From Acidobacteriota bacterium (GTDB taxonomy: Bacteria > Acidobacteriota > Blastocatellia > Pyrinomonadales > Pyrinomonadaceae), in NCBI GenBank assembly GCA_031431735.1, contig JANPDZ010000466.1, positions 1 through 50,122 on the forward strand: a stretch of DNA of 50,122 nucleotides. The letters are read 5' to 3'. This document shows positions 2,466 to 35,599 of the stretch, piece by piece. The notes beneath the pieces are model-generated. The model saw nothing but the letters and a program-made list of their open reading frames with translations, was not told the origin of the DNA and did not search any database. The position numbers and the translations under genes were made by a program. Position 1 is the stretch's first letter. Each line of letters starts with the position of its first letter.

Positions 2466-3194
2466 ATGAGAATTCCAACCCTGCAAGGCATTATCAAACG
2501 AAGACTTCTGGTAAATTTCCGCGCCGATGCCGAAAATATTCAAAAGATTCTGCCAAAAGAATTTCGTCCGAAATTACAAAAAGGCAAAGCGATTGCCGGA
2601 ATTTGTCTGATTCGGCTTGAACAGATGCGACCGAAATTTACGCCGGAATTTCTCGGGCTTTCGAGCGAAAACGCCGCGCACCGGATCGCCGTTTTGTGGG
2701 AAGACGATTCGGGCGAAACGCGCGAAGGAGTTTATATTCCGCGCCGCGACACCGATTCATTTATCAATGCGACGATCGGCGGAACGCTTTTTCCCGGCAA
2801 ACAGAATCGGGCTGATTTTACGGTCGAACGCGAGAAAAATGAGATTGATTTTGCGATGGAGTCGAAAGATAAAAAAGTTGCCGTCGCACTAAAAGGAAGA
2901 ATTACGGACACGTTGCCCGAAACTTCCATTTTTTCTTCGCTTGCTGAATCATCGAAGTTTTTTGAACCCGGATCACTCGGGTTTTCGGTCACAAACGACG
3001 TCAACTATCTGGACGGCATCTCTTTAGAAACAAAGAGTTGGAAAGTTGACGCGCTCGAAATTGATTATGTTCATTCGAGTTTTTACGATGACGCGAGCAT
3101 TTTCCCGAAGGGCGCGATCGAATTCGATCACGCGCTGATTATGCAAAACATCGCGCACGAATGGCACAGTGCGCCGCCGTTTGAGTTACGGTAA
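2466..3194 (+). CDS. hypothetical protein, possibly DUF2071-like (acetoacetate decarboxylase-like fold)
   Basis: 242-aa ORF starting 3 nt after preceding stop; N-terminal pattern LLVNFRADAENIQKILPKEF..GKAIAGICLIRLEQMRP resembles DUF2071; family call is weak. Confidence 0.45.
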   Translation: MRIPTLQGIIKRRLLVNFRADAENIQKILPKEFRPKLQKGKAIAGICLIRLEQMRPKFTPEFLGLSSENAAHRIAVLWEDDSGETREGVYIPRRDTDSFINATIGGTLFPGKQNRADFTVEREKNEIDFAMESKDKKVAVALKGRITDTLPETSIFSSLAESSKFFEPGSLGFSVTNDVNYLDGISLETKSWKVDALEIDYVHSSFYDDASIFPKGAIEFDHALIMQNIAHEWHSAPPFELR

Positions 3195-3238
3195 TATAAT
3201 TCAGATTTCCTTGGTAAAATGTTTTGAGAGGTAATTTT

Positions 3239-3874
3239 ATGAGTTCGATTACGGTTGACACCAGACTTATCGGCGGAATGTTTAGAGAATATACTCCGAA
3301 ACTGCGTTTGGATTTCGGCAATAAAGCGAAGAAGCTCAGCGATGATGATTTTTTTGAATTTTGTCGTGAAAACGCTGATGCGCGGATCGAAATGGATGCA
3401 AACGGAGATATTGAAATTATGCCGCCGACAGGAAGCGAAACGGGAATTAAAAACTTTAAATTAACGACGAAGTTTGGCGTTTGGGTGGAAAAAGACGGAA
3501 GCGGCGAAGGCTTCGATTCTTCAACCGGATTCACCTTACCGAGCGGTGCCAAGCGGTCGCCTGATTTGTCGTGGATAAAATTGGAAAAATGGAATGCGAT
3601 TCCGAAAGCCAAACGCAAGAAATTTGCGCCCGTCTGTCCCGATTTCGTCGTCGAACTTCGTTCCGAAACCGATTCGCTCGAAAAATTGCAGGAAAAAATG
3701 AAGGAATACATCGAAAACGGCGCGTCTTTGGGCTGGCTGATTGATGCCGGAAAACGCAAAGTTTACGTTTATCGTCCTGAAAAGGAAGTTGAAATTATGA
3801 GGAATCCGACCGAAATTTCCGGCGAACCGCTTCTTAAAGGATTCGTGCTGAATTTGAAAGAGATTTGGGAGTAG
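3239..3874 (+). CDS. Uma2-family (DUF820) putative endonuclease
   Basis: PDFVVELRSETDSL, GASLGWLID..KVYVY; same architecture as 1833..2462; ATG 3239. Confidence 0.75.
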   Translation: MSSITVDTRLIGGMFREYTPKLRLDFGNKAKKLSDDDFFEFCRENADARIEMDANGDIEIMPPTGSETGIKNFKLTTKFGVWVEKDGSGEGFDSSTGFTLPSGAKRSPDLSWIKLEKWNAIPKAKRKKFAPVCPDFVVELRSETDSLEKLQEKMKEYIENGASLGWLIDAGKRKVYVYRPEKEVEIMRNPTEISGEPLLKGFVLNLKEIWE

Positions 3875-3883
3875 AAAAAAGCT

Positions 3884-4156
3884 ATGCAAGTTACAGTTGA
3901 ACAAATAGAAAATGGAGTCAAACAGCTTTCACGGGAAGATCTGCGGAAAGTTCAAGAATTAGTGGATTCACTTTTGAAAACAGAAGAAACGAAACCGAAA
4001 ATGAGCGAAGAAGAATTTTTGAAAGAACTTGAAGCAGAAGGTTTTATCGGTAAAGTTCCGCCGCCGATCACTGATTTTTCGCGTTACGATAACTACAAAC
4101 CCGTCACCGTCACAGGCGAACCGATTTCGGAAATGATAATCAGGGAGCGACGCTAA
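3884..4156 (+). CDS. putative antitoxin of PIN toxin (unclassified family)
   Basis: 90-aa acidic ORF; its stop abuts the toxin start (TAA-ATG at 4154-4159); frameshifted paralog at 6771..7042. Confidence 0.55.
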   Translation: MQVTVEQIENGVKQLSREDLRKVQELVDSLLKTEETKPKMSEEEFLKELEAEGFIGKVPPPITDFSRYDNYKPVTVTGEPISEMIIRERR

Positions 4157-4618
4157 ATGGCGACTTATTTTTGCGATACAAGTGCGTTGGCAAAACGCTA
4201 TGTGACCGAAACGGGTTTGGCTTGGCTGATGGCAACGATTGACCCGAAAGTCGGCAATTATGTTTTTATCGCTCGAATTACGTTTGTCGAAGTCTTTTCA
4301 GCAATTTCGCGCAAAGAACGCGGCGGACATATTTCCGCAATCGATGCGGCAACTGCAAAAAAGCAATTTGAAACAGATTATTCAGGCGAGTTTGTCAGCG
4401 TCGAGATTACGGAAACATTAATTCTCGAAGCCGCAAGACTTGCCGAAAAACACGCTTTGCGCGGCTATGATGCCGTTCAACTGGCGGCGACGTTGGAAAC
4501 TCAAGCCAAACGTGCAGTCCGAAAATTGCCGCCTTTAACTTTGCTTTCCGCCGACACAGATTTAAACGCGGCGGCGGTCAGCGAAGGTTTGACGGTTGAT
4601 AATCCGAATAATCATTAG
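4157..4618 (+). CDS. PIN-domain ribonuclease toxin (VapC-like)
   Basis: N-terminal YFCDTSALAKRY (first acidic residue), later GYDAVQLA and SADTDL motifs typical of PIN domains; coupled to upstream small ORF. Confidence 0.7.
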   Translation: MATYFCDTSALAKRYVTETGLAWLMATIDPKVGNYVFIARITFVEVFSAISRKERGGHISAIDAATAKKQFETDYSGEFVSVEITETLILEAARLAEKHALRGYDAVQLAATLETQAKRAVRKLPPLTLLSADTDLNAAAVSEGLTVDNPNNH

Positions 4619-4642
4619 TCAGAAAAGGTTTGGGATTAGTTT

Positions 4643-5227
4643 ATGAAATCAGCAAGAATTTTCATTGTTTTTACTTTTCTTTTGGCATTCGTTGTTTGCG
4701 TTTCAGCGCAAGCTAATCCTTATCCAAATGAATTAAGAGGTTATGAGTTTTTTGGAAAAGGAAAATTAAAAGACTTAAAACTTGGAGTTTCGACAAAAGA
4801 AGATACTAAAAGGATTTTTGGACAAGACTGCGAATATGTTTGTCAATATGATGAAAACTGGTTTGTTAATTTTGATTTCATTGATGAGAACACAACAAAA
4901 GAAATAGGCGGCAAGAAATTTATCCCAAAGAAAGAATTTATTGGAACACTTTATTCAATAACCTTACAACCTAAGAAGAATATTTCTTTTCAAAAGATTA
5001 AATTTTCTAAGTCATTTGCTTTGGGTAATGGTGGCGGTTCAGCTTCTGGTAGTGAAACGGACGAAGGTTCTTGGTATGAGAGTAAAGTCTACGAAGATTC
5101 AAGCGGATTAATTTATGATATTTGCAAAAAGAGTTTTCCAGATAAATGTAAAAAAGGCGAACTGTTAGCAATCGAATACACGCTTCCAAAGAAATCCGAA
5201 GCTAAATTATTCACTTTACAAAAATAA
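4643..5227 (+). CDS. hypothetical secreted protein
   Basis: Signal peptide MKSARIFIVFTFLLAFVVCVSAQA; visibly A+T-rich relative to neighbours; no motif recognised. Confidence 0.5.
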   Translation: MKSARIFIVFTFLLAFVVCVSAQANPYPNELRGYEFFGKGKLKDLKLGVSTKEDTKRIFGQDCEYVCQYDENWFVNFDFIDENTTKEIGGKKFIPKKEFIGTLYSITLQPKKNISFQKIKFSKSFALGNGGGSASGSETDEGSWYESKVYEDSSGLIYDICKKSFPDKCKKGELLAIEYTLPKKSEAKLFTLQK

Positions 5228-5228
5228 A

Positions 5229-5295
5229 TTTATGCAATTTTCATTTGATACAAACTTAAACAGAATCGCCGCAAAGATTGAAGCAAATGAGCGTT
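5229..5295 (+). repeat. relic copy 1 of the 5' end of the radical-SAM gene at 7966
   Basis: TTTATGCAATTTTCATTTGATACAAACTTAAACAGAATCGCCG identical to 7963-8005; encodes [23 protein letters not shown] versus [24 protein letters not shown]. Confidence 0.85.
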
Positions 5296-5634
5296 TTATT
5301 TGAAATCTTCTTCAACTTCTGCGATCAGATATTTTAGTTCTTCATCAGTGATGTTTTCGGTTTCGGCTTTGTCGTAAATTGAGAGCAGATAAACGGTTTG
5401 GGCTATTTGATAAAAATAGGAAATAACACGCGCACCGCCGCTTTTGCCTTTGTTTTTGCTTGAGATTGCGAGGCGGATTTTATAGACGTTTGCGCCGAGC
5501 GATGTTCCGAGCGCGGCGTTTTCTTTTAGTTGGTCAACGAGGTTTTGTAAATCGTTCGGGAAAGATTTGTAGCGTTTGGCGAAACGTTTCGCTTGTTTTT
5601 GAAAAGTTTGGCGGACAATGATTTTATTGCTCAT
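5296..5634 (-). CDS. RelE/ParE-superfamily toxin (DUF1044-like)
   Basis: KGKSGGARVISYFYQ..VYLLSIYDKAETENITDEEL is the characteristic core of this toxin group; overlaps upstream small ORF by 11 nt. Confidence 0.65.
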   Translation of the reverse strand: MSNKIIVRQTFQKQAKRFAKRYKSFPNDLQNLVDQLKENAALGTSLGANVYKIRLAISSKNKGKSGGARVISYFYQIAQTVYLLSIYDKAETENITDEELKYLIAEVEEDFK

Positions 5635-5860
5635 CTTTTAATTTGGCAATGAAATCATCGGCGGAAAGATTGCGGTTTGCGTCCGCATTTTCATTTTGCA
5701 AATCTTTTTTGAGATTGGTCAGCGATTTTTTGAAATCGGTTAGAATGTCTGCTTTATTCACACGCTTTTTAAGCCGCAACAGTTCGTTCTGCAACTTTTC
5801 CCAATATTGGATTGGCACGATAACTGCGTCTTGGTCTTTTAGATATTGAATGTTTTGCAT
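5624..5860 (-). CDS. putative antitoxin of the RelE-like toxin
   Basis: 78-aa ORF from internal ATG (MQNIQYLKDQDAVIVPIQYWEKLQNEL), overlapping toxin start; position and size only. Confidence 0.5.
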   Translation of the reverse strand: MQNIQYLKDQDAVIVPIQYWEKLQNELLRLKKRVNKADILTDFKKSLTNLKKDLQNENADANRNLSADDFIAKLKDEQ

Positions 5861-5885
5861 AATTAATTTCGGCTGAATATTCACA

Positions 5886-6245
5886 AAATTTGATAGAATT
5901 ATAACAAAAATATGCAATTTTCACACGATAAAAATTTGAATTTGAGTAATGTTTCAGTTAATTCGAAACCACTACCAGAGGTAGTGGCTTACTCTTAGTA
6001 AAAAGTTTTAGCGACTGGAGCGCAAGCGTCCCCGCTTGCCATGAGCGTTGCTTCGACGCGAAAAAGCTTTGTTAAATTCGACGATAATAGGCTCGCGAAC
6101 GTCATTTTCGCGCTTTCGCGCTCAGGCAAGCGGGGACGCTTGCGCTCCAGTCATAACTTTTTACTGAGGCATTACTAATTTGATTTCGGAAAAAGTCGAA
6201 GGACGCGAGCGTTTGACTTTTAATGATGGAATATCACTTTCGCAA
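5886..6245 (+). pseudogene. relic copy 2 of a divergent mqn-type gene 5' end, split by a MITE
   Basis: ATG 5912 MQFSHDKNLNL, then element 5946-6176, then ISEKVEGRERLTFNDGISL; joined reading aligns with [30 protein letters not shown] of the gene at 7966. Confidence 0.75.
5946..6176. mobile_element. MITE-like nested palindrome inserted in relic copy 2
   Basis: Termini GTAATGTTTCAGTTAA / AACTTTTTACTGAGGCATTAC; inner 28-bp arms GACTGGAGCGCAAGCGTCCCCGCTTGCC / GGCAAGCGGGGACGCTTGCGCTCCAGTC; flanked by AATTTGA (5939-5945 and 6177-6183); removal restores the relic reading frame. Confidence 0.65.
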
Positions 6246-6413
6246 CAGACTTGTTTCGCTAACCGATTTGTTTTTCGGCAATCCGACTTTTGCTAAAACT
6301 TCATTCGCTTTGGCGAGTTTTTCGGGAAACAGATTTTTTCCGCGCAATTTTTCCAACGACTTATCAACTCTCACAATCGGCGTTTTACTCTTGTTTAGTT
6401 GTTCTATTTTCAT
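6234..6413 (-). CDS. small hypothetical protein (59 aa, below ORF-track cutoff)
   Basis: Hand translation: MKIEQLNKSKTPIVRVDKSLEKLRGKNLFPEKLAKANEVLAKVGLPKNKSVSETSLLRK*; its ATG overlaps the stop of an upstream small frame (ATGA). Confidence 0.35.
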   Translation of the reverse strand: MKIEQLNKSKTPIVRVDKSLEKLRGKNLFPEKLAKANEVLAKVGLPKNKSVSETSLLRK

Positions 6414-6570
6414 ACAAGTTTGTTCTCCGTGTTACCCAAAAAGGCTTCGTAGTCTTTTCCCTTTTCAAATTCATACCAAACATTTTCTTTCAGCCCAAAG
6501 ACTTCAAAATCCCCTGAAATTTCTTCGAGATTAAGCCTTCGGTTGCATATTCATATCTTGGCAGTTTCAT
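6410..6570 (-). pseudogene. small ORF upstream of 6234..6413, apparently frameshifted
   Basis: ATG at 6570 gives MKLPRYEYATEG.. and stops early; an adjacent frame continues ..LNLEEISGDFEVFGLKENVWYEFEKGKDYEAFLGNTENKLV* ending in ATGA overlap. Confidence 0.2.
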
Positions 6571-6685
6571 CTATTTCTTTCGGCAACACTCGCCTTTAGC
6601 TCTCAAATTCGCCGCAATGGAAATTATACGCCGAATTTTTCTAAATTAAAATCATTCGGAAATTGGAGTGTGAATAAAGCCGGAT

Positions 6686-6765
6686 ATTTGATAAAATTAG
6701 AAACAGAATATATGCAATTTTCACACGATACAAACTTAAACAAAATCGCCGAAAAGGTTAGGTAA
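6686..6765 (+). repeat. relic copy 3 of a divergent mqn-type gene 5' end
   Basis: ATG 6712 MQFSHDTNLNKIAEKVR*; shares the CACACG variant and ~26 nt of upstream sequence (ATTTGATA.AATTA..) with copy 2. Confidence 0.8.
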
Positions 6766-6770
6766 AATTT

Positions 6771-7042
6771 ATGCAAGCAGTTTTAGAAAATATTGAAAAA
6801 GAAGTGCAAAGTCTTTCAGCTACAGAACTTGCGAAGGTCAAAGAATTGGTTGATTCTTTGTTGGAAAAGAAAGAAGCGAAACCAACAATGACCGAAGAAG
6901 AGTTTGAGCAGCATCTTTACGAAAAAGGAATATCACCGAAGTTAAACCACCGATAACGGATTTTTCGCGCTATAACGATTACAAACCGATAACCGTGACA
7001 GGTGAACCGATTTCGGAAATGATAATCAGGGAGCGACGATAA
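6771..7042 (+). pseudogene. frameshifted paralog of the antitoxin at 3884..4156
   Basis: MQAVLENIEKEVQSLSATELAKVKELVDSLL.. parallels 3884 product; frame breaks near 6930-6942; other frame continues VKPPITDFSRYNDYKPITVTGEPISEMIIRERR*; last 35 nt identical to 4119-4153. Confidence 0.6.
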
Positions 7043-7231
7043 GTGAAAGTTCGTGAACTAATAAAATTGATTGAAAAAGATGGTTGGCATTTGGTCAGAA
7101 CAAAAGGCAGTCATCGCCAATTTCATCATCTAAGAAAAAGCGGCACGGTGACGATTGCCGGAAAAGAAAGCGTTGAGGTTCCGGCGGGAACGGCGAACAG
7201 CATTTTGAAACAAGCGGGATTGAAAAAATAG
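7043..7231 (+). CDS. hicA: HicA mRNA-interferase toxin
   Basis: GTG start directly after TAA; MKVRELIKLIEKDGWHLVRTKGSHRQFHH is the canonical HicA N-terminus. Confidence 0.8.
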   Translation: MKVRELIKLIEKDGWHLVRTKGSHRQFHHLRKSGTVTIAGKESVEVPAGTANSILKQAGLKK

Positions 7232-7243
7232 CGAGGTAAAATT

Positions 7244-7459
7244 ATGCGGTATATGATTGTTATTGAAGAGGGCGAAACGAGTTTTGGTGCGTATGTGCCG
7301 GATTTACCGGGTTGCATCGCGGTTGGCGAGTCGGAAACAGAAGTCAAACAATTAATTCAGGAAGCAATCGAATTTCATCTTGAAGATTTGCACGAATCGG
7401 GCGCGGAAATTCCGAAGCCTTTGTCGAAAAGCGAATATGTCGAAGTTTTAGCCGTGTGA
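7244..7459 (+). CDS. hicB: HicB-family antitoxin
   Basis: MRYMIVIEEGETSFGAYVPDLPGCIAVGESETEV..AIEFHLE matches the HicB N-terminal domain; immediately downstream of hicA. Confidence 0.75.
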   Translation: MRYMIVIEEGETSFGAYVPDLPGCIAVGESETEVKQLIQEAIEFHLEDLHESGAEIPKPLSKSEYVEVLAV

Positions 7460-7513
7460 TCTAAAGTTAAATGTAGGAAATAGAATAGATTAGAACAAGA
7501 GCGTAAATGATTT

Positions 7514-7852
7514 ATGAATAACCAGACGAAATGTTATTTATGCGGAAATGTTATCAAAGCCAACTTTGGTAATTCTACAGCATGTGATAACTGCTTCAAA
7601 AGCCTTGAAGCTGGAACCTACAAATCTATTCAAAGAGATACGCCAAAACCTAAAGAAAATAATTCTAACATTACAACAACTTCGACTAATCGTAAATTCT
7701 CAAAGTTGTTTTTTGAATACATAGGAACCGTAGGCGGACTATTGACTATCTTACTTGCCGCCTATAATTTTTATTATGTCACTAAACGACGGAAAGAGTT
7801 TAAAAGATTCTTTTATATTTGCGGCGATTATATTTGGGTTTCTTGTTTTTAG
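7514..7852 (+). CDS. hypothetical zinc-ribbon membrane protein
   Basis: CYLCG..CDNC Cys pairs at N-terminus, one predicted TM helix (VGGLLTILLAAYNFYYV); A+T-rich. Confidence 0.4.
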   Translation: MNNQTKCYLCGNVIKANFGNSTACDNCFKSLEAGTYKSIQRDTPKPKENNSNITTTSTNRKFSKLFFEYIGTVGGLLTILLAAYNFYYVTKRRKEFKRFFYICGDYIWVSCF

Positions 7853-7965
7853 GATGATTTTAGCTTGGTTAAGATACAAATAAGTTTAAACCTTTACGAA
7901 ATAAATAAAAATCGTGGACTAAATCATACGAGGAAATTTTAGGGCAAAGTTTAAAGAACAGATTT

Positions 7966-9072
7966 ATGCAATTTTCATTTGATACAAACTTAAACAGAAT
8001 CGCCGAAAAGGTTGAAGCGGGGGACCGTTTGACCTTTGATGAAGGCATCGAATTATACAAAACCGACGATTTGAACGCGCTCGGTAAATTGGCGGATTCG
8101 GTTCGGCGCGCAAAACACGGAAAGACGACTTATTACAACGTCAACCGGCATTTTAATCACACGAATATCTGCGTTGCGGACTGCAAATTCTGCGGTTTTT
8201 ACCGCCGCGCTCGGCAGTCGGACGCTTATACGCATTCGATTGCGGAAGCGTTGGAGATTGCGGGAAACGCTGTCAAAGAAGGCGCGACCGAACTTCATAT
8301 TGTCGGCGGTTTGAACTCGAAATTGCCGTTTGAGTATTACATCGATTTGTTTTCGTCATTAAAACGCGAATTTCCGCGTCTGCATCTTAAAGCGTTGACG
8401 ATGGTCGAGCTAGATTTTATGGCGCGGTTTTATAAAATGTCGGACGAAGAAGTGATCGAACGCCTCAAAGCGGCGGGAATGGACAGTTGCCCGGGCGGCG
8501 GCGCGGAGATCTTTGCCGAACCGACGCGTTCGCGCATCTGCGACCATAAATGCGACGGAATGCGCTGGCTCGAACTCGCCGGAAAAGTCCACAAAGCGGG
8601 ACTTAAAACCAACGCGACGATGCTTTACGGACATATCGAAACGACCGAAGACCGCGTTGACCATTTTGTAAAACTGCGTGAACAGCAAGAAAAATCGGGC
8701 GGTTTTCAATGTTTTATTCCGCTCGCGTTTTATCCGGCGGGAACTGCGCTTTCATCACTTCCCGGACCGGACGCGATTGACAATCTGAAAACGATCGCCG
8801 TTTCGCGCCTGATGCTCGACAATTTCGACCATATCAAAGCGTATTGGGTAATGCTCGGCAAGGCGACGACACAAACCGCGCTTCATTTCGGCGCGAACGA
8901 CGTTGACGGCACGATTACCGACGGCGGCGAACTGACGCACGCTTATTCGGTCGAAGAAGGCGGCGAACAGAAAATGACGAAGGCTGAATTAATTACGATG
9001 ATCGAAAACGCCGGTTTTGAAGCGGTCGAGCGCGATACGGTTTACAATCGCGTCGAAAAGGTTGCGGCGTAA
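7966..9072 (+). CDS. radical-SAM enzyme of the futalosine menaquinone pathway (MqnE/MqnC family)
   Basis: [10 protein letters not shown] = CxxxCxxC radical-SAM cluster motif; ~368 aa with N-terminal GERLTFDEG-type region and [12 protein letters not shown] typical of MqnE/MqnC/CofH-like enzymes; cannot separate MqnE from MqnC by eye. Confidence 0.7.
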
Positions 9073-9087
9073 TTTGTAGAGAAAGAT

Positions 9088-9124
9088 AGCGCGATTCCGA
9101 AAACAAAATTAACGCCCGAAGAAT
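9088..9124 (+). repeat. direct-repeat copy of codons 2-14 of the Uma2 gene at 9783
   Basis: AGCGCGATTCCGAAAACAAAATTAACGCCCGAAGAAT versus 9786-9822 AGCGCGACTCCGAAAACAAAATTAACGCCCGAAGAAT (36 of 37). Confidence 0.85.
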
Positions 9125-9141
9125 TTTAGAGGAGAAGAAAG

Positions 9142-9777
9142 ATGCAGACAGTTTCAGAAAAAACTTACAGTAAAATTTTTGTTCCCAACAACTCCGGCGC
9201 ACTACGTTTCAAATTCGAGGCGAATAATAAACGGCTGAAATTCACCGATGATGAATTTTGGGAATTTTGCCGTCAAAACGATGAGATGCGAATTGAAATG
9301 ACCAAAGAAGGAGACGTAATAATTATGCCGCCGACGGGAAGCGAAACGGGCGAAAGAAACGCCGAAATTACGATGCAGTTAAGAATCTGGGCGAAAAAAG
9401 ACAAATGCGGCAAAAGTTACGATTCTTCAACCGGATTCAAACTGCCGAACGGCGCGACCGTTTCGCCGGATTCATCTTGGGTTTTAAATAAAAGACTGGA
9501 AAAATTTACCGCCAAACAGCGCGAAAAATTTCTGCCGCTGTGTCCCGATTTTGTTTTAGAATTGCGTTCCGCGTCAGACAGTCTGAAAATAGCGCAAAAT
9601 AAAATGCAGGAATACATCGAAAACGGCACGCGACTCGGTTGGCTGATTGATCCGAAAAATAAACGGGTTCACATTTACCGTGCAAACGGCGAAATCAAAA
9701 TCTTGGAAAATCCGGATAAAGTTTCGGGAGAAGATGTTTTGCCCGGGTTTGAATTGGATTTGACAGAGATTTGGTAA
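9142..9777 (+). CDS. Uma2-family (DUF820) putative endonuclease
   Basis: RBS GAGGAG; PDFVLELRSASDSL, GTRLGWLIDPKNKRVHIY; paralog of 1833 and 3239 genes. Confidence 0.75.
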   Translation: MQTVSEKTYSKIFVPNNSGALRFKFEANNKRLKFTDDEFWEFCRQNDEMRIEMTKEGDVIIMPPTGSETGERNAEITMQLRIWAKKDKCGKSYDSSTGFKLPNGATVSPDSSWVLNKRLEKFTAKQREKFLPLCPDFVLELRSASDSLKIAQNKMQEYIENGTRLGWLIDPKNKRVHIYRANGEIKILENPDKVSGEDVLPGFELDLTEIW

Positions 9778-9782
9778 AAATT

Positions 9783-10361
9783 ATGAGCGCGACTCCGAAA
9801 ACAAAATTAACGCCCGAAGAATATCTCGAATTTGAGCGAAAATCCGAGACGAAGCACGAATATTTTAACGGCGAAATCTTTGCGATGTCGGGCGCAAAGC
9901 GAAATCATAATGTCGTTGCGTGGAATATCGGCGGTGAGTTACGGCAAAAGTTGAAGGGCAAAAGTTGTGAAGCCTATCCGGCAAATATGCGCGTTTTTGT
10001 TCCGCAAACAGGACTTTACACTTATCCTGATTTGGTCATTGTTTGCGGTGAACCGCAGTTTCAGGACGATGTTTTCGACACTTTGCTCAATCCGATTTTA
10101 CTTATTGAAGTGCTTTCCGATTCGACCGAATCTTATGATCGCGGCAAAAAGTTTCAGCATTATCGAAGCATCGAGAGTTTGCAGGAATATGTTTTGGTCG
10201 CGCAGGACGAAGCGCGAATCGAAAAATATATCCGGCGCGGCGACGGCTTTTGGCTTTTATCGGAAGCGGTCGGTTTGGGTGCGGAAATCGAATTTTCTTC
10301 GGTCGAATGCCGCATTGCGCTGGCGGAAGTTTATGACAAGATAGATTTTGAAAATGAGTAA
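9783..10361 (+). CDS. Uma2-family (DUF820) putative endonuclease, second subtype
   Basis: LTPEEYLEFE..HEYFNGEI, YTYPDLVIVCG, NPILLIEVLSDSTESYDRGKKFQHYRSIESLQEYVLV are classic Uma2 blocks. Confidence 0.75.
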   Translation: MSATPKTKLTPEEYLEFERKSETKHEYFNGEIFAMSGAKRNHNVVAWNIGGELRQKLKGKSCEAYPANMRVFVPQTGLYTYPDLVIVCGEPQFQDDVFDTLLNPILLIEVLSDSTESYDRGKKFQHYRSIESLQEYVLVAQDEARIEKYIRRGDGFWLLSEAVGLGAEIEFSSVECRIALAEVYDKIDFENE

Positions 10362-10842
10362 TGCCCGCCAACATTTAATCCGCATTCTGCAAAATGCTCA
10401 CGCCGGCGAACTGGCGGCGGCTTTTGCTTATCGCGGACATTGGAAATCTTTGCGTGAATCGGCGGAAAAAACGCAAATAAAAAAGATTGAAGCGGAAGAA
10501 TGGGCGCATCGCGCGAATGTGCGAAAGTGGCTTGAGTATTTAGGCGCGAAGCCGCGTAGAATCAGAGAAGCCCTTTTTTGGACAATTGGCAAAACAATCG
10601 GCGTAGCGTGTTATATTTCGGGTTGGTTTTTCCCGATGTATTTTGCCGGCCGTCTTGAAAGCCAAAATGTTCAGGAATATGTAACGGCGGCTGAATTTGC
10701 GCGCGAATTGAAGATGCCGGATTGCGCCGAAGAATTGATGGAAATGTCGCTGACAGAACAAGAACACGAAGATTTTTTCAGGCAAACTGTCGCGAATCAT
10801 CGTCTTTTGCCAATTACGCGCAAGATATTTCGTTGGAGCTAA
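10354..10842 (+). CDS. ferritin-like di-iron protein (demethoxyubiquinone hydroxylase-like family)
   Basis: Two ExxH motifs (EAEEWAH, TEQEHEDFF) in a ~160-aa helical protein; start overlaps preceding stop. Confidence 0.5.
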   Translation: MSNARQHLIRILQNAHAGELAAAFAYRGHWKSLRESAEKTQIKKIEAEEWAHRANVRKWLEYLGAKPRRIREALFWTIGKTIGVACYISGWFFPMYFAGRLESQNVQEYVTAAEFARELKMPDCAEELMEMSLTEQEHEDFFRQTVANHRLLPITRKIFRWS

Positions 10843-10845
10843 TTT

Positions 10846-10879
10846 GATTTGAGATTTGGGATTGCGGATTTGGGATTTC
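10846..10879. repeat. tandem heptamer array, GATTGCG type (single arm)
   Basis: GATTTGA GATTTGG GATTGCG GATTTGG GATTTC immediately after stop of 10354..10842. Confidence 0.7.
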
Positions 10880-10913
10880 TTGTTTCTACTCGCTATAATT
10901 TTTTCCATTAGAC

Positions 10914-11084
10914 ATTATTTGAAATAAAGAAATTATCCACGAAGGGACACGAAGATTTCACGAAGGACAGAAAAAGTTGCGGATTAGTTAAAACTGAACC
11001 GACAAAGGGCGATAAATATTTCAAAAAAAGAAAAAATCTTCGTGTTTTCTTCGTGAAACTTCGTGGATAGTTATTTCAAATAAT
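10914..11084. repeat. long imperfect palindrome with CACGAAG-repeat arms
   Basis: ATTATTTGAAATAA / TTATTTCAAATAAT outer arms; inner ATCCACGAAGGGACACGAAGATTTCACGAAGG / CTTCGTGTTTTCTTCGTGAAACTTCGTGGAT. Confidence 0.65.
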
Positions 11085-11246: not shown

Positions 11247-12167
11247 ATGCCGAAAAAAAAAAGTAACTTACAAAACAGATCAGAACTTTTCGCCGTGCGC
11301 TCGCTTTTGGGCGCGATCGGCGCGTTACCGCTCGAAACTTCAATGAGATTCGGGAAAGCGGTCGGCAAATTCCTTGCAAAACGATTTCCAAAATTACAAA
11401 AAACGGCGCGTCGTAATCTGGAAATTGCTTTGCCTGAGTTAACAGAAACCGAAAGAAAAAAAATTGTTCACGGCACATTTGAAAGTTTGGGCAGACATCT
11501 CGGTTTTGTTTCGCATTTCAGGAAATTCAAGCACGAAGACATTCGCGATCTGATCGAAGTTGTCGGCAAAGAACATTTTGACAAGGCGCATGAAACAGGT
11601 CGCGGAATTTTGTTTTTCACGGGACATTTCGGCAGTTGGGAAGTTTTTAATCTGCTGCCGCCGGCATTCGGTTACGGAATGAATATTCTTGTGCGCCGGA
11701 TTGATAATCCGCTTGTGGAAAACTTTGTGGATAAAATGCGAACTCGTTTCGGATCAGTTACTTTGGATAAAACAAAATCAACGCGGACGATGTTTCGCGC
11801 ACTCGAAAACGGCGAACTTCTCGGTATTCTGGCGGATCTGAATGTGCAGGAAAAAGAAGGCGTGTTCGTCGATTTTTTCGGCGTCCTGGCTTCAACTACC
11901 TTGAGCATTGCCAAATTAGCGATCAAAACCGACGCGGTCGTGCTTCCGGCGTTTGCTGTCTGGGAAGAATCGAAAAAGAAATACGTCGTTTATCTCGAAC
12001 CGCCGATTGAATATTCGAAAGGCGACAATTCGCCTGAAAACATCCTCGAACTGACGCAAAAAATCACAAACACGGTCGAAAAATACGTCCGCCGTTATCC
12101 CGAACAATGGCTCTGGATCCACAAACGATGGAATACGCGCCCGCCGGGCGAAGCAAACCTCTACTGA
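11247..12167 (+). CDS. lipid A biosynthesis (LpxL/HtrB-type) lysophospholipid acyltransferase
   Basis: FFTGHFGSWE (HX4-acidic motif), C-terminal RYPEQWLWIHKRW typical of the Kdo2-lipid IVA acyltransferase family. Confidence 0.7.
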   Translation: MPKKKSNLQNRSELFAVRSLLGAIGALPLETSMRFGKAVGKFLAKRFPKLQKTARRNLEIALPELTETERKKIVHGTFESLGRHLGFVSHFRKFKHEDIRDLIEVVGKEHFDKAHETGRGILFFTGHFGSWEVFNLLPPAFGYGMNILVRRIDNPLVENFVDKMRTRFGSVTLDKTKSTRTMFRALENGELLGILADLNVQEKEGVFVDFFGVLASTTLSIAKLAIKTDAVVLPAFAVWEESKKKYVVYLEPPIEYSKGDNSPENILELTQKITNTVEKYVRRYPEQWLWIHKRWNTRPPGEANLY

Positions 12168-12317
12168 TTGCGGATTGCGGATTTCGGATTGCGGATTTAT
12201 TTTTTAACGAATTCGAATCTTTCCGTGCCAATCTAACCAATCCGCAATCCCCAATCCACAATCCACAATCGAATGGATTTAACCAATCCGAGATCCGCAA
12301 TCCCCAATCCGAGATCG
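12166..12317. repeat. GATTGCG-type heptamer hairpin plus duplicated right arm
   Basis: GATTGCGGATTGCGGATTTCGGATTGCGGATTT (12166-12198) opposed by AACCAATCCGCAATCCCCAATCCACAATCCACAATCG (12236-12272) and a second block AACCAATCCGAGATCCGCAATCCCCAATCCGAGATCG (12281-12317). Confidence 0.75.
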
Positions 12318-19920: not shown

Positions 19921-19942
19921 CGTCTTATAAAATTCAGTGAGT

Positions 19943-20785
19943 ATGGAAAACAATTTAGCAAATACAAAACTCGCGTTCATCGGTTGCGGCGTGATGGCGG
20001 AGTCAATCATCGCCGGACTTTTGCGGAAAAAACTCGTTCGCGCCGGACAAATCGTCGCCAGTCATCCGCGTGAAAATCGGCGCAGGGAACTCGGCGAAAA
20101 ATATGGCATCGAAGTTTTTGAAGAAAACTCGGAAGCGGTTGAAAAGATTCGCAAAAACGAAAATTCAATCGTCATTTTATGCGTCAAACCGCAAAGAATT
20201 AAAGGCGTTTTGGAAGAATTGAAAGGCGCGGTCGCACTGCATCAACTTGTCGCCTCGATCATCGCGGGCGTGCGTATTGAAACGATTTCCGAAGCATTGA
20301 ATAATCAAAAAATCGTCCGCGCAATGCCGAACACGCCTTCGCAAATCGGCGCGGGAATTACGGCTTGGACTTGCACCGAAAGCGTTTCGGACGAAGAAAA
20401 ATCGCAAATCAAAGCCTTGTTGACCGCGCTCGGCAAAGAGCTTCACGTTGAAACCGAAAATATGATAGATATGGCGACTTCGCTTTCTGCCACGGGACCG
20501 ACGTATATTTTTCTCGTCATGGAAGCCTTAACGGACGCAGGCGTGCACCTCGGGTTTTCGCGTGAAATGGCAAAAGAACTCGTGCAGGAAACAATGCTCG
20601 GCTCCGTTTTGTTTGCGATGGAATCGCACAAACATCCGGCGGAACTCCGCAATATGGTCACCTCGCCCGGCGGAACTTCGGCGGACGCGATCTATCAAAT
20701 GGAAAAAGGCGGTCTTCGCACCGTTCTTTCAAAAGCCGTTTACGCCGCCTATCAACGTGCGGTTGCGCTCGGACAAAAGAAATAA
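19943..20785 (+). CDS. proC: pyrroline-5-carboxylate reductase
   Basis: N-terminal FIGCGVMAESII dinucleotide fold, MPNTPSQIG, SPGGTSADAI blocks. Confidence 0.85.
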   Translation: MENNLANTKLAFIGCGVMAESIIAGLLRKKLVRAGQIVASHPRENRRRELGEKYGIEVFEENSEAVEKIRKNENSIVILCVKPQRIKGVLEELKGAVALHQLVASIIAGVRIETISEALNNQKIVRAMPNTPSQIGAGITAWTCTESVSDEEKSQIKALLTALGKELHVETENMIDMATSLSATGPTYIFLVMEALTDAGVHLGFSREMAKELVQETMLGSVLFAMESHKHPAELRNMVTSPGGTSADAIYQMEKGGLRTVLSKAVYAAYQRAVALGQKK

Positions 20786-20787
20786 TT

Positions 20788-21095
20788 TTACAATTTCCGA
20801 TACATTATCAGCGCATTCGTCAAACCGTTTTCCTGATGCTGAAAGGCTTCGGGAATTTCGCCGATGATTTTAAAACCTACGCTCTGCCAAAGCCTGACGG
20901 CGACTGTGTTGGATTTGACGACGAAATTAAACTGCATCGCCTGATAGCCTAATTCCTTGGCTTCTTCCAAAGAAAATTCCGCCATTGTCCGTCCGACTTG
21001 TTTGCTTTTCTAATTTCCGGCATCTCTTTACTAATTTGAATTTCCAAACCATTCGATCAACATTTTCGTCGAAAATATAATTTCACAATCAAAAA
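20788..21095 (-). pseudogene. internally deleted GNAT remnant plus 3' tail of the SRA-like gene (degenerate copy of 24146-24745)
   Basis: 65-aa ORF shares 59 of 65 residues with the C-terminus of the GNAT at 24149..24688; the rest of the GNAT body is missing; 21000-21095 matches 24655-24745. Confidence 0.75.
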
Positions 21096-24129: not shown

Positions 24130-24148
24130 GTGAATTATTAGATACTTT

Positions 24149-24688
24149 TCATAATTTCCGATACATAATCAGTGCGTTTGTCAGACCGTTTTCGGCGTGC
24201 TGAAATGCTTCGGGAATTTCGCCGATAATCTCAAAACCTAAGCTCTGCCATAATCGAACGGCGAACGTGTTCGATTTGACGACGAAATTAAACTGCATCG
24301 CACGATAGCCTAATTCCTTGGCTTCACGAAGCGAGAATTCCGCCATTGTCCGCCCGATGCCTTTGCCCATTGATTCCGCCGCAACCATATAACCCGCGTT
24401 GGCAATGTGCGAACCCAGATCGGGCTGATTGTCTTTGAGAAAAAATGTGCCGATGATTTTGGCGTTTGAGTTGATTGAGTTGGGCAAATTTAACCCGCCC
24501 GCTACCGCAGACGGTTCTGACAAAACGGCAACGTAAGTTTTTTTATCTTTAGAAAACCAGAAATCAAGCATTTTTTCTTGCGAGGTATTCGGATAAAAAG
24601 GGTATGTGTCGCCGCCAGCAATGACGGATTTGATAATTCCCCAGACCTGCGGTTTGTCGTCTTCGGTTGCTTTTCTAATTTCGAGCAT
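24149..24688 (-). CDS. GNAT-family N-acetyltransferase
   Basis: Acetyl-CoA loop MGKGIGRTM and GNAT C-terminal fold; contains extra LSEPSAVAGGLNLPNSINSN segment encoded by a repeat element. Confidence 0.75.
   Translation of the reverse strand: MLEIRKATEDDKPQVWGIIKSVIAGGDTYPFYPNTSQEKMLDFWFSKDKKTYVAVLSEPSAVAGGLNLPNSINSNAKIIGTFFLKDNQPDLGSHIANAGYMVAAESMGKGIGRTMAEFSLREAKELGYRAMQFNFVVKSNTFAVRLWQSLGFEIIGEIPEAFQHAENGLTNALIMYRKL
24490..24526. repeat. half copy of the palindromic element found in the helicase gene, in frame inside the GNAT CDS
   Basis: Reverse complement GTTTTGTCAGAACCGTCTGCGGTAGCGGGCGGGTTAA matches 41678-41714 GTTTTGTCAGAACCGCCTGCGGTAGCGGGTGGTTTAA. Confidence 0.7.
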
Positions 24689-25118
24689 CTCTTTGTAAAG
24701 TAAATTTCCAAATCATACGGTTTTGTGCTTCGTCGAAAATGTATTTTCCTTCCGCGACGCGCCAAAAACCTAAAAACTGCCACGCGCTCGTCTTTAGTTT
24801 GTTAAAAAGCGGCACAGCGCGACCTGATTCTATAGCATTAAACAACGATTTATTGAATGAATCAAGCCGTTGATCGCCGCGCCGACCCGCCCCCGTGTAA
24901 AAAATCGTTTCCGCCGTATCGCCGTGAAAATCGGGATAACACGGGTTGATTTTGCCGAAATCCGTCAGCAGCGAGATTAACATCCCTTTTCGCTGATAGA
25001 TACCGTTGCGCACTTTGTGAATTTCGGCGACCTCGTTCCACGAAAAATTTTTGCCGATGTCGTCGGTTGTAAAAAAACTACCGGTTATAGTTGTATTTTG
25101 TTCGTTTATACTTGACAC
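24675..25118 (-). CDS. hypothetical protein, possible SRA/YDG-like (PUA-fold) modified-base reader domain
   Basis: GIYQRKGMLISLL..DTAETIFYTGAGRRGDQRLDSFNKSL..AVPLF resembles the Y-T-G-x-G..(D)Q..N..L core of SRA/SBD domains; overlaps GNAT start by 14 nt; family call weak. Confidence 0.35.
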   Translation of the reverse strand: MSSINEQNTTITGSFFTTDDIGKNFSWNEVAEIHKVRNGIYQRKGMLISLLTDFGKINPCYPDFHGDTAETIFYTGAGRRGDQRLDSFNKSLFNAIESGRAVPLFNKLKTSAWQFLGFWRVAEGKYIFDEAQNRMIWKFTLQRDARN

Positions 25119-32740: not shown

Positions 32741-33355
32741 ATGGTTGATTTAATTCCGTCGTCAGAATCGGTGATGGCGATTTTGCAAGAAACGGGCGCA
32801 TATCGCAAAGGACATTTCAAATACCCGAACGGCAAACACGCTTCGCATTATTTTCAGATGCCGTTGGCGTTTCGTTATTACAATAATGCAAGAGTTATGT
32901 CGGTCGGTTTAAGCCGAATGTTTCGGCTGGAAAAAGCGATTTCCAGCCGCTTGCCCAAAATTTCGGTGATCAGTCCGAGTCCGGGCGGCATTGTCGTCGC
33001 TTTTGGCGTGCGCGAAGCTTTGTCTGCCGAACAGATTTACTGGGCGGAAATGGAAGACGGCAAGCGTCAATTTCGTCAATATATCGGCGAAGGTGATGTT
33101 CATCCGGCAATTATCGTTGACGATATAATTCGTTCGGGCAAAGCAATAGAGGAAACCTTTAATCTCGTCAGAGAATTGGGTGCGGAAGTTATCGGTTGTG
33201 GCGCGATCGTCAGATTTGAAGACTCGCCGACCGAAATTGACGGTGTTCCGGTTAAAAGTTTGATGACGTTTGACGTAAATTTCTATGAAACAGAAGAAGA
33301 ATGGAAACATTCCCGAAACGCATCTGACACCGACGAACAAAAAGTTAGATTTTAA
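32741..33355 (+). CDS. type I phosphoribosyltransferase (orotate PRTase-like)
   Basis: RBS AGGAGA before ATG 32741; PRPP-binding loop AIIVDDIIRSGKAI. Confidence 0.65.
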   Translation: MVDLIPSSESVMAILQETGAYRKGHFKYPNGKHASHYFQMPLAFRYYNNARVMSVGLSRMFRLEKAISSRLPKISVISPSPGGIVVAFGVREALSAEQIYWAEMEDGKRQFRQYIGEGDVHPAIIVDDIIRSGKAIEETFNLVRELGAEVIGCGAIVRFEDSPTEIDGVPVKSLMTFDVNFYETEEEWKHSRNASDTDEQKVRF

Positions 33356-33535
33356 AGTGAAAAAGGGTAAAAGGGTAAGAGGGTAAAAGGGGAAAGGGGA
33401 AAAAGTTTGATCGCAAATTATCGACTAAACTTTTACCCTTTTACCCTTTTACCCTCTTACCCTCTTACCCTCTTACCCTCTTACCCTCTTACCCTCTTAC
33501 CCTTTTACCCTTTTACCCTTTTTCACTTTTTCACT
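33356..33535. repeat. GGGTAAAA octamer hairpin with unequal arms
   Basis: Left arm about 5 units (GGGTAAAA GGGTAAGA GGGTAAAA GGGGAAA..), loop, right arm about 13 units of ACCCTTTT/ACCCTCTT; between convergent genes. Confidence 0.85.
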
Positions 33536-34896: not shown

Positions 34897-34901
34897 TTGC
34901 C

Positions 34902-34977: not shown

Positions 34978-34979
34978 CA

Positions 34980-35594: not shown

Positions 35595-35599
35595 ATTTC

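Follow-up and report, generated by a model that had tools for sequence, protein, structure and literature searches.

Integrative elements accrete at gene ends in tandem ICE/CIME arrays, at rlmH (SCC elements), and at tRNA genes (tycheposons); these systems, like integrons, depend on a dedicated recombinase that acts at a fixed core site. Insertion with long target duplication (Nobusato et al. 2000; Furuta, Abe & Kobayashi 2010, PMC2853133) involves no mobility genes; the target duplications are long and variable, lie over start or stop codons, and occur mostly in competent species. Its cargo consists of restriction-modification units, mostly inserted in single events and flanked by near-identical repeats. 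Arrays of orphan immunity genes in the T6SS clusters of V. cholerae have been attributed to homology-facilitated illegitimate recombination (PMC5361080). In these arrays and in orphan Rhs/CDI modules, the anchor belongs to a polymorphic toxin system, whose own variable tip or immunity gene is displaced. Minimal mobile elements of Neisseria (Saunders & Snyder 2002), as summarized in the citing paper (PMC3787668), need a different conserved gene on each side and leave no relics behind.

We analyzed a 50,122-nt stretch of DNA (the window) from an Acidobacteriota bacterium of the Pyrinomonadaceae (GCA_031431735.1, contig JANPDZ010000466.1, positions 1 to 50,122, forward strand). The resident gene at the center of this study (7950–9072, + strand, ATG at 7966) encodes MqnE, aminofutalosine synthase of menaquinone synthesis (TIGR03700, 473.9 bits against a cutoff of 434.6). 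A degenerate 29-nt pattern for its 5′ end matched four times in the window, always on the + strand (5232, 5912, 6712, and 7966), compared with no match in 100 dinucleotide-preserving shuffles. A sequence-only reading of the window had placed four copies of the gene start at exactly these positions, and the translations quoted there were correct when rechecked against the sequence. It had also distinguished two sequence types, and both were recovered: the copies at 5232 and 7966 form a single type (51/53 identical), and those at 5912 and 6712 both carry CACACG and have ~26 nt of upstream sequence in common (5888–5913 versus 6686–6711, 81%). The outer-left neighbor of the array (ORF 4643–5227, + strand) encodes a signal-peptide protein, secreted or lipoprotein-like, with no match in a Pfam search. 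The family is hypervariable with a conserved signal peptide; homologs directly abut intact mqnE in L047 and stand before a relic in L072 and L003 (L numbers designate the comparator loci). The ~16 nt before the resident mqnE resemble the 3′ end of this gene (5215–5231), and 5215–5284 is 91% identical to 7950–8018.

The four mqnE starts separate three cassettes. Relic 1 (5232–5296, + strand) begins 4 nt after the stop codon of the outer-left gene and comprises mqnE nt 1 to ~65 of the FSFDT type. It is most likely the old gene start, which has retained its native spacing after the upstream gene. Cassette 1 (5296–5860, − strand) follows, with a RelE-family toxin (5296–5634; PF06296, E = 7.7e-10) and an upstream antitoxin (5624–5860). 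Relic 2 is split. Its first part, relic 2a (5888–5945, + strand), consists of a cassette-borne leader of ~24 nt and mqnE nt 1–34 of the FSHDK type, and is interrupted by a palindromic MITE of 230 nt (5946–6175, no strand assigned). The terminal inverted repeats of the MITE are 12 nt long (GTAATG...CATTAC), a further inverted repeat of 28 nt inside it is perfect, and 7 bp of target sequence, AATTTGA, are duplicated at 5939–5945 and 6177–6183; its DNA fold has an energy of −77 kcal/mol (z = −11.8). A sub-threshold Rfam match of the MITE to mir-584 was rejected, as it reflects the hairpin only. The mqnE copy picks up again at 6184 and ends at ~6240, so that relic 2b (6177–6240, + strand) extends as far as mqnE ~+93; on its inner side it is similar to relic B of L003 (6191–6487 versus L003 6656–6951, 88.6%). 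Cassette 2 (6234–6570, − strand) contains a 59-aa ORF (6234–6413) and a frameshifted upstream ORF (6413–6570), neither of which had a match in Pfam; the unit is conserved in L003 and decaying in the window. Relic 3 (6686–6759, + strand) comprises 26 nt of the relic-2 leader and mqnE nt 1–48 of the FSHDT type, and its junction with the antitoxin RBS is homologous to junctions in L005 and L023. Cassette 3 (6771–7852, + strand) contains a frameshifted antitoxin (6771–7042), HicA (7043–7231; Pfam search, E = 3.1e-19), HicB (7244–7459; E = 1.9e-13), and a Zn-ribbon/TM ORF (7514–7852). The antitoxin relic is a paralog of 3884–4156 (3877–4159 versus 6764–7045, 72%). The RelE, HicA, and HicB domain matches and the frameshifted antitoxin agree with the cassette contents listed previously; one of the two tiny ORFs proved to be frameshifted as well.

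The same pattern is found a second time immediately downstream of mqnE. Uma2 gene B is represented at 9086–9124 (+ strand) by a relic of its initial ~40 nt in which the ATG is destroyed. The segment that follows (9127–10361, + strand) holds the inserted Uma2 gene A, which brings its own RBS (ORF 9142–9777), and then the intact target, Uma2 gene B (ATG at 9783, to 10361). Genes A and B match PF05685 with E = 2.3e-40 and 2.1e-32, respectively. The junction of GAAGAAT with TTTAGAGGAGA is common to L005, L072, L083, and L160. The gene A junction occurs in five genomes with differing left flanks, and L001 also has the gene B relic together with the flank downstream of it. The empty site, mqnE followed by gene B alone, is found in L004 and L006.

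Each cassette junction at the mqnE start recurs in relatives. The junction between relic and RelE stop is also present in L015, L072, and L161–L164, that between relic and antitoxin in L005 and L023, and that between relic and tiny ORF in L003. Left of the antitoxin junction, L005 has a DUF2071 gene, L023 a different gene, and the window another cassette. Empty sites, in which the upstream gene directly abuts mqnE, are found in L001, L004, and L047. These junctions and empty sites support the proposal that each event leaves a relic while mqnE stays intact. The hotspot is wider than that reading saw, with both ends of mqnE affected in many relatives. Relics of the 3′ end are stacked downstream of the gene in 19 of 51 evaluable close-clade loci, with up to four in tandem (L028); 5′ relics are rarer (6 of 52). 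Among more distant relatives, neither 5′ relics (0/75) nor 3′ relics (0/79) were found. Across 1.97 Mb of loci there are 101 direct-repeat pairs, 43 of which involve an mqnE end, and many of the others pair one relic with another. The cargo of the examined loci includes RelE, HicAB, PIN, ParE, Gp49/HTH, DUF4258, Uma2, Vsr, and a putative C5-methyltransferase ORF (by motif only).

Nearly all comparators, like the window itself, are contigs from MAGs or metagenomes, and the loci were judged from the assembled contigs. Strain variants concatenated at a shared k-mer region could, in such material, mimic a repeat array. We consider such an assembly artifact highly improbable: neither simple haplotype contains junctions such as mqnE +65 to the RelE stop, these junctions are found again in independent assemblies from separate studies, including contigs of 94 kb to 1.5 Mb, and the relics show decay in the form of indels, destroyed ATGs, and a MITE with its target duplication.

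The junctions scatter within mqnE. Inner boundaries at the 5′ end fall at ~+41, 48–54, 57, 65–70, 93, and 105, and those at the 3′ end fall 59–240 nt upstream of the stop codon; the insertion points in the window lie inside the coding sequence at ~+48, ~+65, and ~+93. Thus, of the earlier proposal of insertion at a single hotspot at the start codon, the hotspot stands, with the same junctions and empty sites in relatives, and the position does not, as the junctions fall within the ORF, from +41 to +105. The recombinase motif H.[LFMIV]RH[ST] was found four times in ORFs of at least 150 aa (L001–L080 and the window), never adjoining mqnE. Recombinase genes were absent from the arrays except for one borderline IS200-like ORF in L024. 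None of the relics was attC-like in its folding (z = −0.85 to +1.5). These searches concur with the earlier report of no integrase and no attC-like site. Because the boundaries scatter, no tyrosine-recombinase motif lies beside mqnE, and the relics lack hairpins, insertion does not appear to be site-specific.

The same data bear on two recombinase-based explanations. The cassettes could be remnants of integrase-less CIME-like or satellite elements, mobilized in trans by a tyrosine or serine recombinase, with attB overlapping the mqnE ends and the relics representing attL and attR. Accretion at att sites typically leaves the end of a conserved gene in partial, tandem copies, and restriction to one clade is what a clade-specific enzyme would give. 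However, the boundaries form a continuum at either end of the gene and lack a shared core, and the duplicated segments are 40–240 nt long and allele-mosaic; together with the recombinase searches, this makes such accretion improbable. An integron-like array or CALIN, in which the repeats act as attC-type sites, would be in keeping with small, ordered, mostly promoterless-looking cassettes between related repeats and with the frequency of TA genes in chromosomal integrons. Against this, the repeats are plain coding-sequence copies homologous to the adjacent gene and have no hairpin potential, the cassettes stand in both orientations, and no intI-like motif was found. We therefore regard an integron as very unlikely.

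The alleles of the relics provide information on where the new gene end comes from. L004, L015, L072, L161, and L163 carry the CACACG (FSHDK) type as their resident allele, and the copy at 5912 is 94% identical to the L004 resident start versus 79% to the window's own, consistent with the earlier suggestion that the second type was imported from another mqn allele. Homologs of the cassette 1 RelE (83–90% identity) adjoin an mqnE start in 4/4 contexts examined, of which three are distinct (L163 and L164 are near-identical), and this cassette appears to be locus-bound, tied to the mqnE start. In the five genomes in which this cassette and the resident gene are directly adjacent (L015, L072, L161, L163, and L164), mqnE always has the same leader and FSHDK-type start; in the window and L162, the leader and start copy after the cassette have been truncated by a later insertion, and L162 reads FSYDK. 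The outer relic beside the cassette is of the FSFDT type. At the 3′ end, the last ~69 nt of the L012 resident are a different allele, resembling the relic that L102 carries ahead of the same VapBC cassette. Over 109 nt, the L012 relic matches the L097 resident end at 100% identity, versus 88% for its own resident, although part of this tract lies within ~nt 811–930, which is very conserved in several genomes anyway. Many relics are closer to residents of other genomes than to their own, and some are chimeric: relic 1 differs from the resident at none of its first 40 nt and 7 of its last 25, and relic 2 is FSHDK-like on its outer side and L003-like on its inner side. Based on these allele patterns, what remains as the relic is most likely the start that the recipient had before the event, and its replacement would arrive with the cassette. 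The reverse polarity, in which the outer gene and relic were imported from the left, would be the less likely alternative. The mqnE 5′ ends of RelE-cassette carriers are no more alike than the rest of the gene; therefore, the RelE events are probably old, with blurred breakpoints.

These patterns also bear on duplication in situ, in which a non-homologous cassette enters at widely staggered breaks and fill-in duplicates 40–240 bp of the recipient's gene end. The breaks would perhaps be made by a cassette-encoded or host nuclease (Uma2 or toxin), and differences between relic and resident would arise by later drift and mqnE allelic replacement. To our knowledge, no enzyme makes staggered cuts of 40–240 bp. 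Several observations suit this explanation: the youngest-looking pairs are near-identical (the Uma2 gene B relic, with a 37-nt match of 97.3% to 9786–9822; the two L012 copies, which overlap by 58 identical nt [58/58]; and relic 1, 40/40 nt), relics 2 and 3 have 26 nt of upstream leader in common as if co-duplicated, and nuclease genes are frequent cargo. The phenomenon is also described in such terms, with no mechanism given, in PMC2853133. Nevertheless, the RelE cassette is accompanied by the same leader and an FSHD-type start (FSYDK in L162) in seven genomes, as the intact resident in five and truncated by a later insertion in two, next to an outer relic of the other type; the foreign allele in L012 is linked to its cassette; and relics are commonly closer to other genomes' residents. 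We consider duplication in situ unlikely.

Collectively, the locus is probably a stack of small cassettes, selfish or accessory, built without an integrase by homology-anchored recombination in mqnE. The cassettes hold toxin-antitoxin pairs and Uma2 nucleases, with Dcm/Vsr and others among the cargo of relatives. The anatomy, its recurrence, the variable junctions, the foreign alleles, and the decay are observed; working back from these end products in MAGs, we infer as follows by which route recombination took place, in what order the events fell, and why the cassettes were kept. The incoming DNA would be a cassette joined to a copy of an mqnE end, with the join falling inside the recipient's mqnE end, 40–105 nt past the ATG or 59–240 nt before the stop. 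mqnE would be rebuilt from the incoming copy, leaving the recipient's old end as a truncated relic beyond the cassette. One illegitimate join would be required the first time each kind of event happens, by homology-facilitated illegitimate recombination or single-crossover insertion-duplication. Afterwards, the unit of gene end, cassette, and relic could enter any mqnE-bearing genome by ordinary two-armed homologous recombination, one arm being the gene body and the other the relic, which, as a homology arm that moves with the cassette, would pair with the gene end of the recipient. Repeated events at the resident copy would stack cassettes, with the newest closest to the gene. Loss by repeat-mediated deletion would be slowed by the short, diverged repeats and by addictive toxin-antitoxin modules, and relics and cassettes would later decay by frameshifts, deletions, and MITE insertion. 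The shortness of the relics and the choice of mqnE do not follow from the scheme itself and may reflect survivorship and founder effects.

The sequence-only reading had concluded that no described mechanism fits. Insertion with long target duplication (PMC2853133) and arrays built by homology-facilitated illegitimate recombination (PMC5361080) do fit. The mqnE stack appears to fit the former: in both, a small selfish unit lies between long (>30 bp), variable direct target repeats, a relative's empty site has one copy, no integrase or transposase is present, and the repeats often cover a start or stop codon while the target gene stays intact. At mqnE, however, the cargo consists of TA pairs, Uma2 nucleases, and other small genes; the events are iterated, with up to 3–4 relics, at both ends of one housekeeping gene and across a bacterial family; and the repeats are allelic mosaics, pointing to a donor-supplied gene end. 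The T6SS and Rhs/CDI arrays similarly have a conserved homologous anchor with the other end joined illegitimately, and successive events push older modules outward, where remnants stay, without a recombinase. The anchor at mqnE differs in being an unrelated housekeeping gene that serves as a landing pad at both ends. Unlike minimal mobile elements, the mqnE units would draw both arms from one conserved gene, because a piece of mqnE is duplicated on the cassette's far side. ICE/CIME arrays, SCC elements, tycheposons, and integrons also stack cargo between repeated gene ends or recombination sites, whereas at mqnE the boundaries vary, hairpins are lacking, and a recombinase was not found. The apparently recombinase-free stacking of selfish genes recurs at both ends of mqnE across a family of soil Acidobacteria.

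The intact resident gene starting at 7966 encodes aminofutalosine synthase MqnE (TIGR03700, 473.9 bits). A degenerate 29-nt pattern of its start matched the window at 5232, 5912, 6712 and 7966 and never in 100 dinucleotide-preserving shuffles, which bears out the four gene-start copies of the sequence-only reading. Repeat finding and alignment reproduced the two sequence types that it distinguished, and alignment confirmed the leader of about 26 nt that it saw upstream of both copies 2 and 3. The three truncated copies, or relics, overlap the resident by about 48, 65 and 93 nt and are thus direct repeats of the target longer than 30 bp. Relic 1 shows no differences from the resident in its first 40 nt and 7 in its last 25. 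Relic 2 combines a RelE-linked start of protein-level type FSHDK with an inner part of the type found in L003, one of the comparison loci carrying mqnE relatives (handles L001 to L164). It is interrupted, as had been proposed, by a palindromic 230-nt element (5946-6175), a probable MITE, which has terminal inverted repeats of 12 nt, is flanked by the 7-bp target duplication AATTTGA and folds with z = -11.8. Past this element, relic 2 runs on to about +93 from the ATG. One MITE copy is present in the window, and a 28-nt fragment lies in L007 (14275-14302). The sole Rfam match in 3000-11000, a sub-threshold hit to mir-584, reflects a resemblance of the MITE hairpin only. A promoter and terminator scan of 4600-9200 returned fewer sites than shuffled sequence.

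Three cassettes lie between the copies. Cassette 1, on the minus strand, holds a RelE-family toxin (PF06296, above gathering score) and its upstream antitoxin; cassette 2 holds a 59-aa ORF and a frameshifted partner. Cassette 3 begins with a frameshifted paralogue of the antitoxin at 3884-4156 and continues with HicA (PF07927), HicB (PF15919; both above gathering score) and a Zn-ribbon ORF. The RelE, HicA and HicB families, in adjacent small toxin and antitoxin genes, identify type II toxin-antitoxin cargo. Searches of Pfam and NCBIfam gave no match for the 59-aa ORF, the RelE-partner antitoxin, the Zn-ribbon ORF or the outer secreted protein. Inserts in the window measure 0.6-1.2 kb, below a 20-kb limit, and their ORFs are toxin-antitoxin genes, Uma2 genes or small unknowns. 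An intact antitoxin-PIN pair is located upstream of the array (3884-4618), and the paralogue of its antitoxin in cassette 3 occupies 6771-7042. The presence there of HicAB in place of the PIN toxin suggests that a toxin may have been replaced inside the cassette.

MqnE relatives were taken from genome and metagenome collections, and the comparison evidence consists of MAGs. By these relatives, the window belongs to Pyrinomonadaceae (Acidobacteriota). An exact-sequence look-up of the window MqnE for conspecific contigs found none on record. The single-copy sites that the sequence-only reading had proposed looking for in relatives do exist. A homologue of the secreted-protein gene at 4643-5227 abuts mqnE directly in L047, a DUF2071 gene does so in L004, and the closest relative, L001 (96% amino-acid identity), is also empty, with no mqnE relic. 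Occupied sites share junctions with the window. The joint between relic and RelE stop codon was found in L015, where most of RelE is deleted, in L072 and, through a search for RelE homologues, in L161-L164. The joint between relic and antitoxin ribosome-binding site (RBS) recurs in L005 and L023; these two loci and the window have the same junction in different outer contexts. That between relic and tiny-ORF unit recurs in L003 (88.6% over 297 nt). L162 resembles the window in having a second relic (to about +105) and one more cassette. Because such non-trivial junctions are common to independent assemblies, an assembly artefact, the objection that the sequence-only reading raised against itself, is strongly disfavored.

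Upstream of mqnE lies a member of a secreted-protein family whose signal peptide is conserved (M.RAKIFI.FTFL.AF...SAQ) and whose body is hypervariable (about 32% identity). Members are found in the window (4643-5227), L003 (5310-5933 and 5950-6612), L001 (2384-2932) and L161 (5404-5904). In L003, the second secreted-protein gene stands after one relic, and an unrelated gene of 213 aa after another. Since an mqnE-start relic lies between the tandem secreted-protein genes, the secreted-protein gene also behaves as a cassette.

To survey both ends of the gene, we searched 1.97 Mb of loci using nhmmer with profiles made from the 110 nt at each end of mqnE. Relics of the 3' end, located downstream of the gene, are commoner than 5' relics and occur up to four in tandem (L028). 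Within the close clade, defined by at least 78% identity to the window MqnE, 5' relics were present at 6 of 52 evaluable loci and 3' relics at 19 of 51; the corresponding counts in more distant Pyrinomonadaceae were 0 of 75 and 0 of 79. Loci with 3' relics are L003, L011-L013, L018, L023, L024, L028, L084, L088, L089, L092-L096, L100, L102, L150 and L154. These relics span 59-240 nt and often stand two to four in tandem, with toxin-antitoxin, Uma2, Vsr and other cassettes between them. Apparent insertions of about 330 nt within mqnE in L094, L095, L150 and L154 were discarded, as tblastn had joined the resident to an adjacent 3' relic. An mqnE end is involved in 43 of the 101 pairs in a direct-repeat census, and many of the remaining pairs join relic to relic. 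We rejected the idea that gene-start relics are common at all genes, as the census gave only a handful outside mqnE. Across loci, array cargo comprises HicAB, VapBC/PIN, ParE with antitoxin, Gp49/HigB with HTH, DUF4258, Uma2, Vsr, PIG-L, secreted proteins and unknowns. L024 is the sole relative in which Vsr adjoins a putative C5-methyltransferase ORF, recognized by motif only. One array of L024 (12313-12828) also includes a borderline IS200-like Y1 (RayT-like) ORF.

A similar arrangement follows mqnE in the window. Just past the stop codon, at 9086-9124, lies a 38-nt relic, 97% identical to the Uma2-B start and with its ATG destroyed; it is followed by Uma2-A (9142-9777) with its own RBS and by intact Uma2-B (9783-10361). 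The junction GAAGAAT/TTTAGAGGAGA is common to L005, L072, L083 and L160, although the Uma2-A genes have diverged, and the relic is present in L001 too. Empty sites are provided by L004 and L006, where Uma2-B follows mqnE without Uma2-A. A third insert flanked by a target duplication in the window is formed by a decayed, internally deleted copy (20782-21084; 84% and 77% identity) of the GNAT acetyltransferase gene at 24149-24688 on the minus strand (compared region 24142-24748). This copy directly follows proC (19937-20785), and a gene for a 950-aa PD40/FG-GAP beta-propeller protein separates it from the intact GNAT gene.

Four paralogues of the Uma2 putative nuclease (PF05685) lie within 9 kb around mqnE (1803-2462, 3224-3874, 9142-9777 and 9783-10361); the first two flank a DUF2071 gene and are 78% identical over their 3' 290 nt. 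Several gene ends carry short, palindromic, REP-like intergenic repeats that form families (10840-10881, 12166-12273, 34897-34987, 35594-35706 and 43965-44039), and two related blocks at 33354-33543 and 37061-37180 have a tandem structure in an 8-nt register.

The inner boundaries of the relics are scattered, at about +41, 48-54, 57, 65-70, 93 and 105 for the 5' end and at 59-240 nt before the stop codon for the 3' end, and the outer boundaries are simply the native neighbor. Thus, the hotspot of the sequence-only reading stands, but its position at the start codon does not, as the 5' junctions lie at about +41 to +105 within mqnE. With boundaries varying at both ends, no fixed core or crossover site is common to the junctions. 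An illegitimate joint would be expected at a microhomology of 3-10 bp; mqnE +44-48 and the antitoxin RBS have AAGG/AGGT in common, which is only suggestive. The tyrosine-recombinase motif H.[LFMIV]RH[ST] was matched four times in ORFs of at least 150 aa from 81 sequences, never near mqnE. In window ORFs of at least 150 aa, and beside mqnE in the loci, this motif screen gave no match, which speaks against an IntI-type integrase with attI adjoining the array. Six repeat regions folded as single-stranded DNA gave z scores from -0.85 to +1.53 against shuffles, with no attC-like hairpin, and the relics matched no family in the Rfam search of 3000-11000. The sequence-only reading had likewise seen no integrase or attC-like site. 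Since the junctions lack a common core, a hairpin, an Rfam family and a tyrosine-recombinase motif beside mqnE, site-specific accretion of the CIME, SCC or tycheposon kind is unlikely, and so is an integron- or CALIN-type mechanism.

Often a relic is more similar to the resident allele of another genome than to that of its own. The 3' relic of L012 is 100% identical to L097 and 88% to its own resident, the 5' relic of L015 is 91% identical to L151 and L008 and 77% to its own, and the first part of window copy 2 (2a) is 94% identical to L004. The last value supports the import from a different mqn allele proposed from the sequence alone. Where the RelE cassette directly abuts the resident (L015, L072, L161, L163 and L164), a single leader and an FSHDK-type start follow in 5 of 5 cases. 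In the window and L162, the start after this cassette was truncated by a later insertion, and the L162 copy reads FSYDK; altogether, seven genomes link an FSHD-type start (FSYDK in L162) to the RelE cassette. The outer relic beside the cassette is of the FSFDT type. As a breakpoint signal, we compared the 5' ends of RelE-cassette carriers (L072, L015 and L004) with the gene body; the ends were not more alike, and the N-terminal region is the most variable part of mqnE in this comparison.

L012 shows the donor-linked anatomy most cleanly. Its resident matches L097 up to about 69 nt before the stop codon, and the last 69 nt or so are of a different allele, like the relic preceding the same VapBC cassette in L102. 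This foreign gene end is followed by VapBC and then by a relic that starts about 121 nt before its own stop codon; the first 58 nt of the relic are identical to the resident copy, and the remainder, with about 50 nt downstream, is of the L097 type. This anatomy indicates that the cassette came in on one piece of DNA with a replacement gene end, and that the duplicated stretch is the overlap of both. Window relic 1 has the same polarity, with no differences in the outer 40 nt and 7 in the inner 25. Near-identity of nt 811-930 in several genomes weakens the case for taking the 100% tract between L012 and L097 as a clean recombination tract; what carries the argument is nt 960-1045, together with the relic and the foreign end of about 69 nt. 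The main rival explanation is duplication of a long target in situ through a break-and-fill process. The near-identity of some repeat pairs, such as the 58 nt of L012, agrees with it; the homologous anchor beside foreign DNA holds donor-derived sequence, both at the L012 end and at the RelE-linked starts, and we consider this rival unlikely.

The observation is confirmed. Empty sites, recurring junctions and foreign alleles support cassette stacking as first read, with corrections. Sequence comparison suggests that its best explanation is probably a homology-anchored, recombinase-free insertion of cassettes with gene-end duplication. In the seed event, a cassette with its mqnE end from a related genome would be joined inside the recipient's mqnE end, one side by homology and the other illegitimately, or alternatively by single-crossover insertion-duplication. 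The product, ordered gene body, end B, cassette and relic B', would be transferable into any mqnE-bearing genome by ordinary two-armed homologous recombination, in which the relic would pair with the recipient's own gene end while B and the cassette loop in. This mechanism would account for the same junction in different outer contexts, for chimeric relics and for the locus-bound distribution of the RelE cassette. Stacking would place the newest cassette beside the gene (window and L162 compared with L072 and L161). We propose that the outer 20-40 nt of relics are conserved despite cassette divergence because each transfer would re-create them from the functional recipient gene, and that a need for sequence similarity would explain the restriction to one clade. 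We infer that toxin-antitoxin addiction favors retention and that short, diverged repeats are the survivors. Decay is visible in frameshifts, the L015 deletion, an L003 deletion between ATTTTC microhomologies and the MITE.

More tentatively, the relics may be what makes a cassette system without a recombinase work. The duplicated gene-end piece would serve as a portable homology arm, and plain RecA recombination could insert the unit of gene end, cassette and relic into any carrier of the gene, whatever its neighbors; with the relic re-created from the recipient gene at each transfer, repetition would build integron-like arrays at both mqnE ends. If true, this would be a general route for toxin-antitoxin, restriction and nuclease genes to move without transposases or integrases, and would supply a mechanism for the unexplained long target duplication. 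How chromosomal toxin-antitoxin and small defense or selfish modules spread between genomes without mobility genes is a long-standing loose end, and for 25 years long target duplications at restriction-modification (RM) genes have been catalogued with no mechanism to explain them. With nested arrays, empty sites and allelic mosaics at either end of a single gene, the mqnE loci amount to dozens of natural replicates on which competing mechanisms predict different, checkable things. For annotation, short pseudo-copies of a housekeeping gene from near its start or stop codon should be read as cassette boundaries, not assembly noise.

Insertion with long (>30 bp), variable target duplication was defined for RM units by Furuta et al. 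(PMC2853133). Those units carry no mobility genes and are found for the most part in naturally competent species; a start or stop codon often lies within their repeats, which keeps the target gene intact (PMC2853133). The mqnE case matches this structurally, with repeats over 30 bp, an empty site and no tyrosine-recombinase motif near mqnE in our screen. The sequence-only reading knew of no described mechanism for the locus; this described phenomenon fits it, and the authors give no mechanism (PMC2853133). Window inserts hold RelE/antitoxin, HicAB and Uma2 genes and no restriction and modification genes; RM content is a criterion of those authors' screen rather than of the phenomenon. Kirchberger et al. 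explained orphan immunity-gene arrays by homology-facilitated illegitimate recombination (PMC5361080), and the mqnE case agrees with the donor-allele prediction of that model. Minimal mobile elements of Neisseria move via flank homology (PMC3787668). The mqnE case differs from the systems of PMC2853133 and PMC5361080 in its cargo, in its repeated insertions, which form arrays at either end of a single housekeeping gene across a family, and in that one gene apparently serves as both arms.
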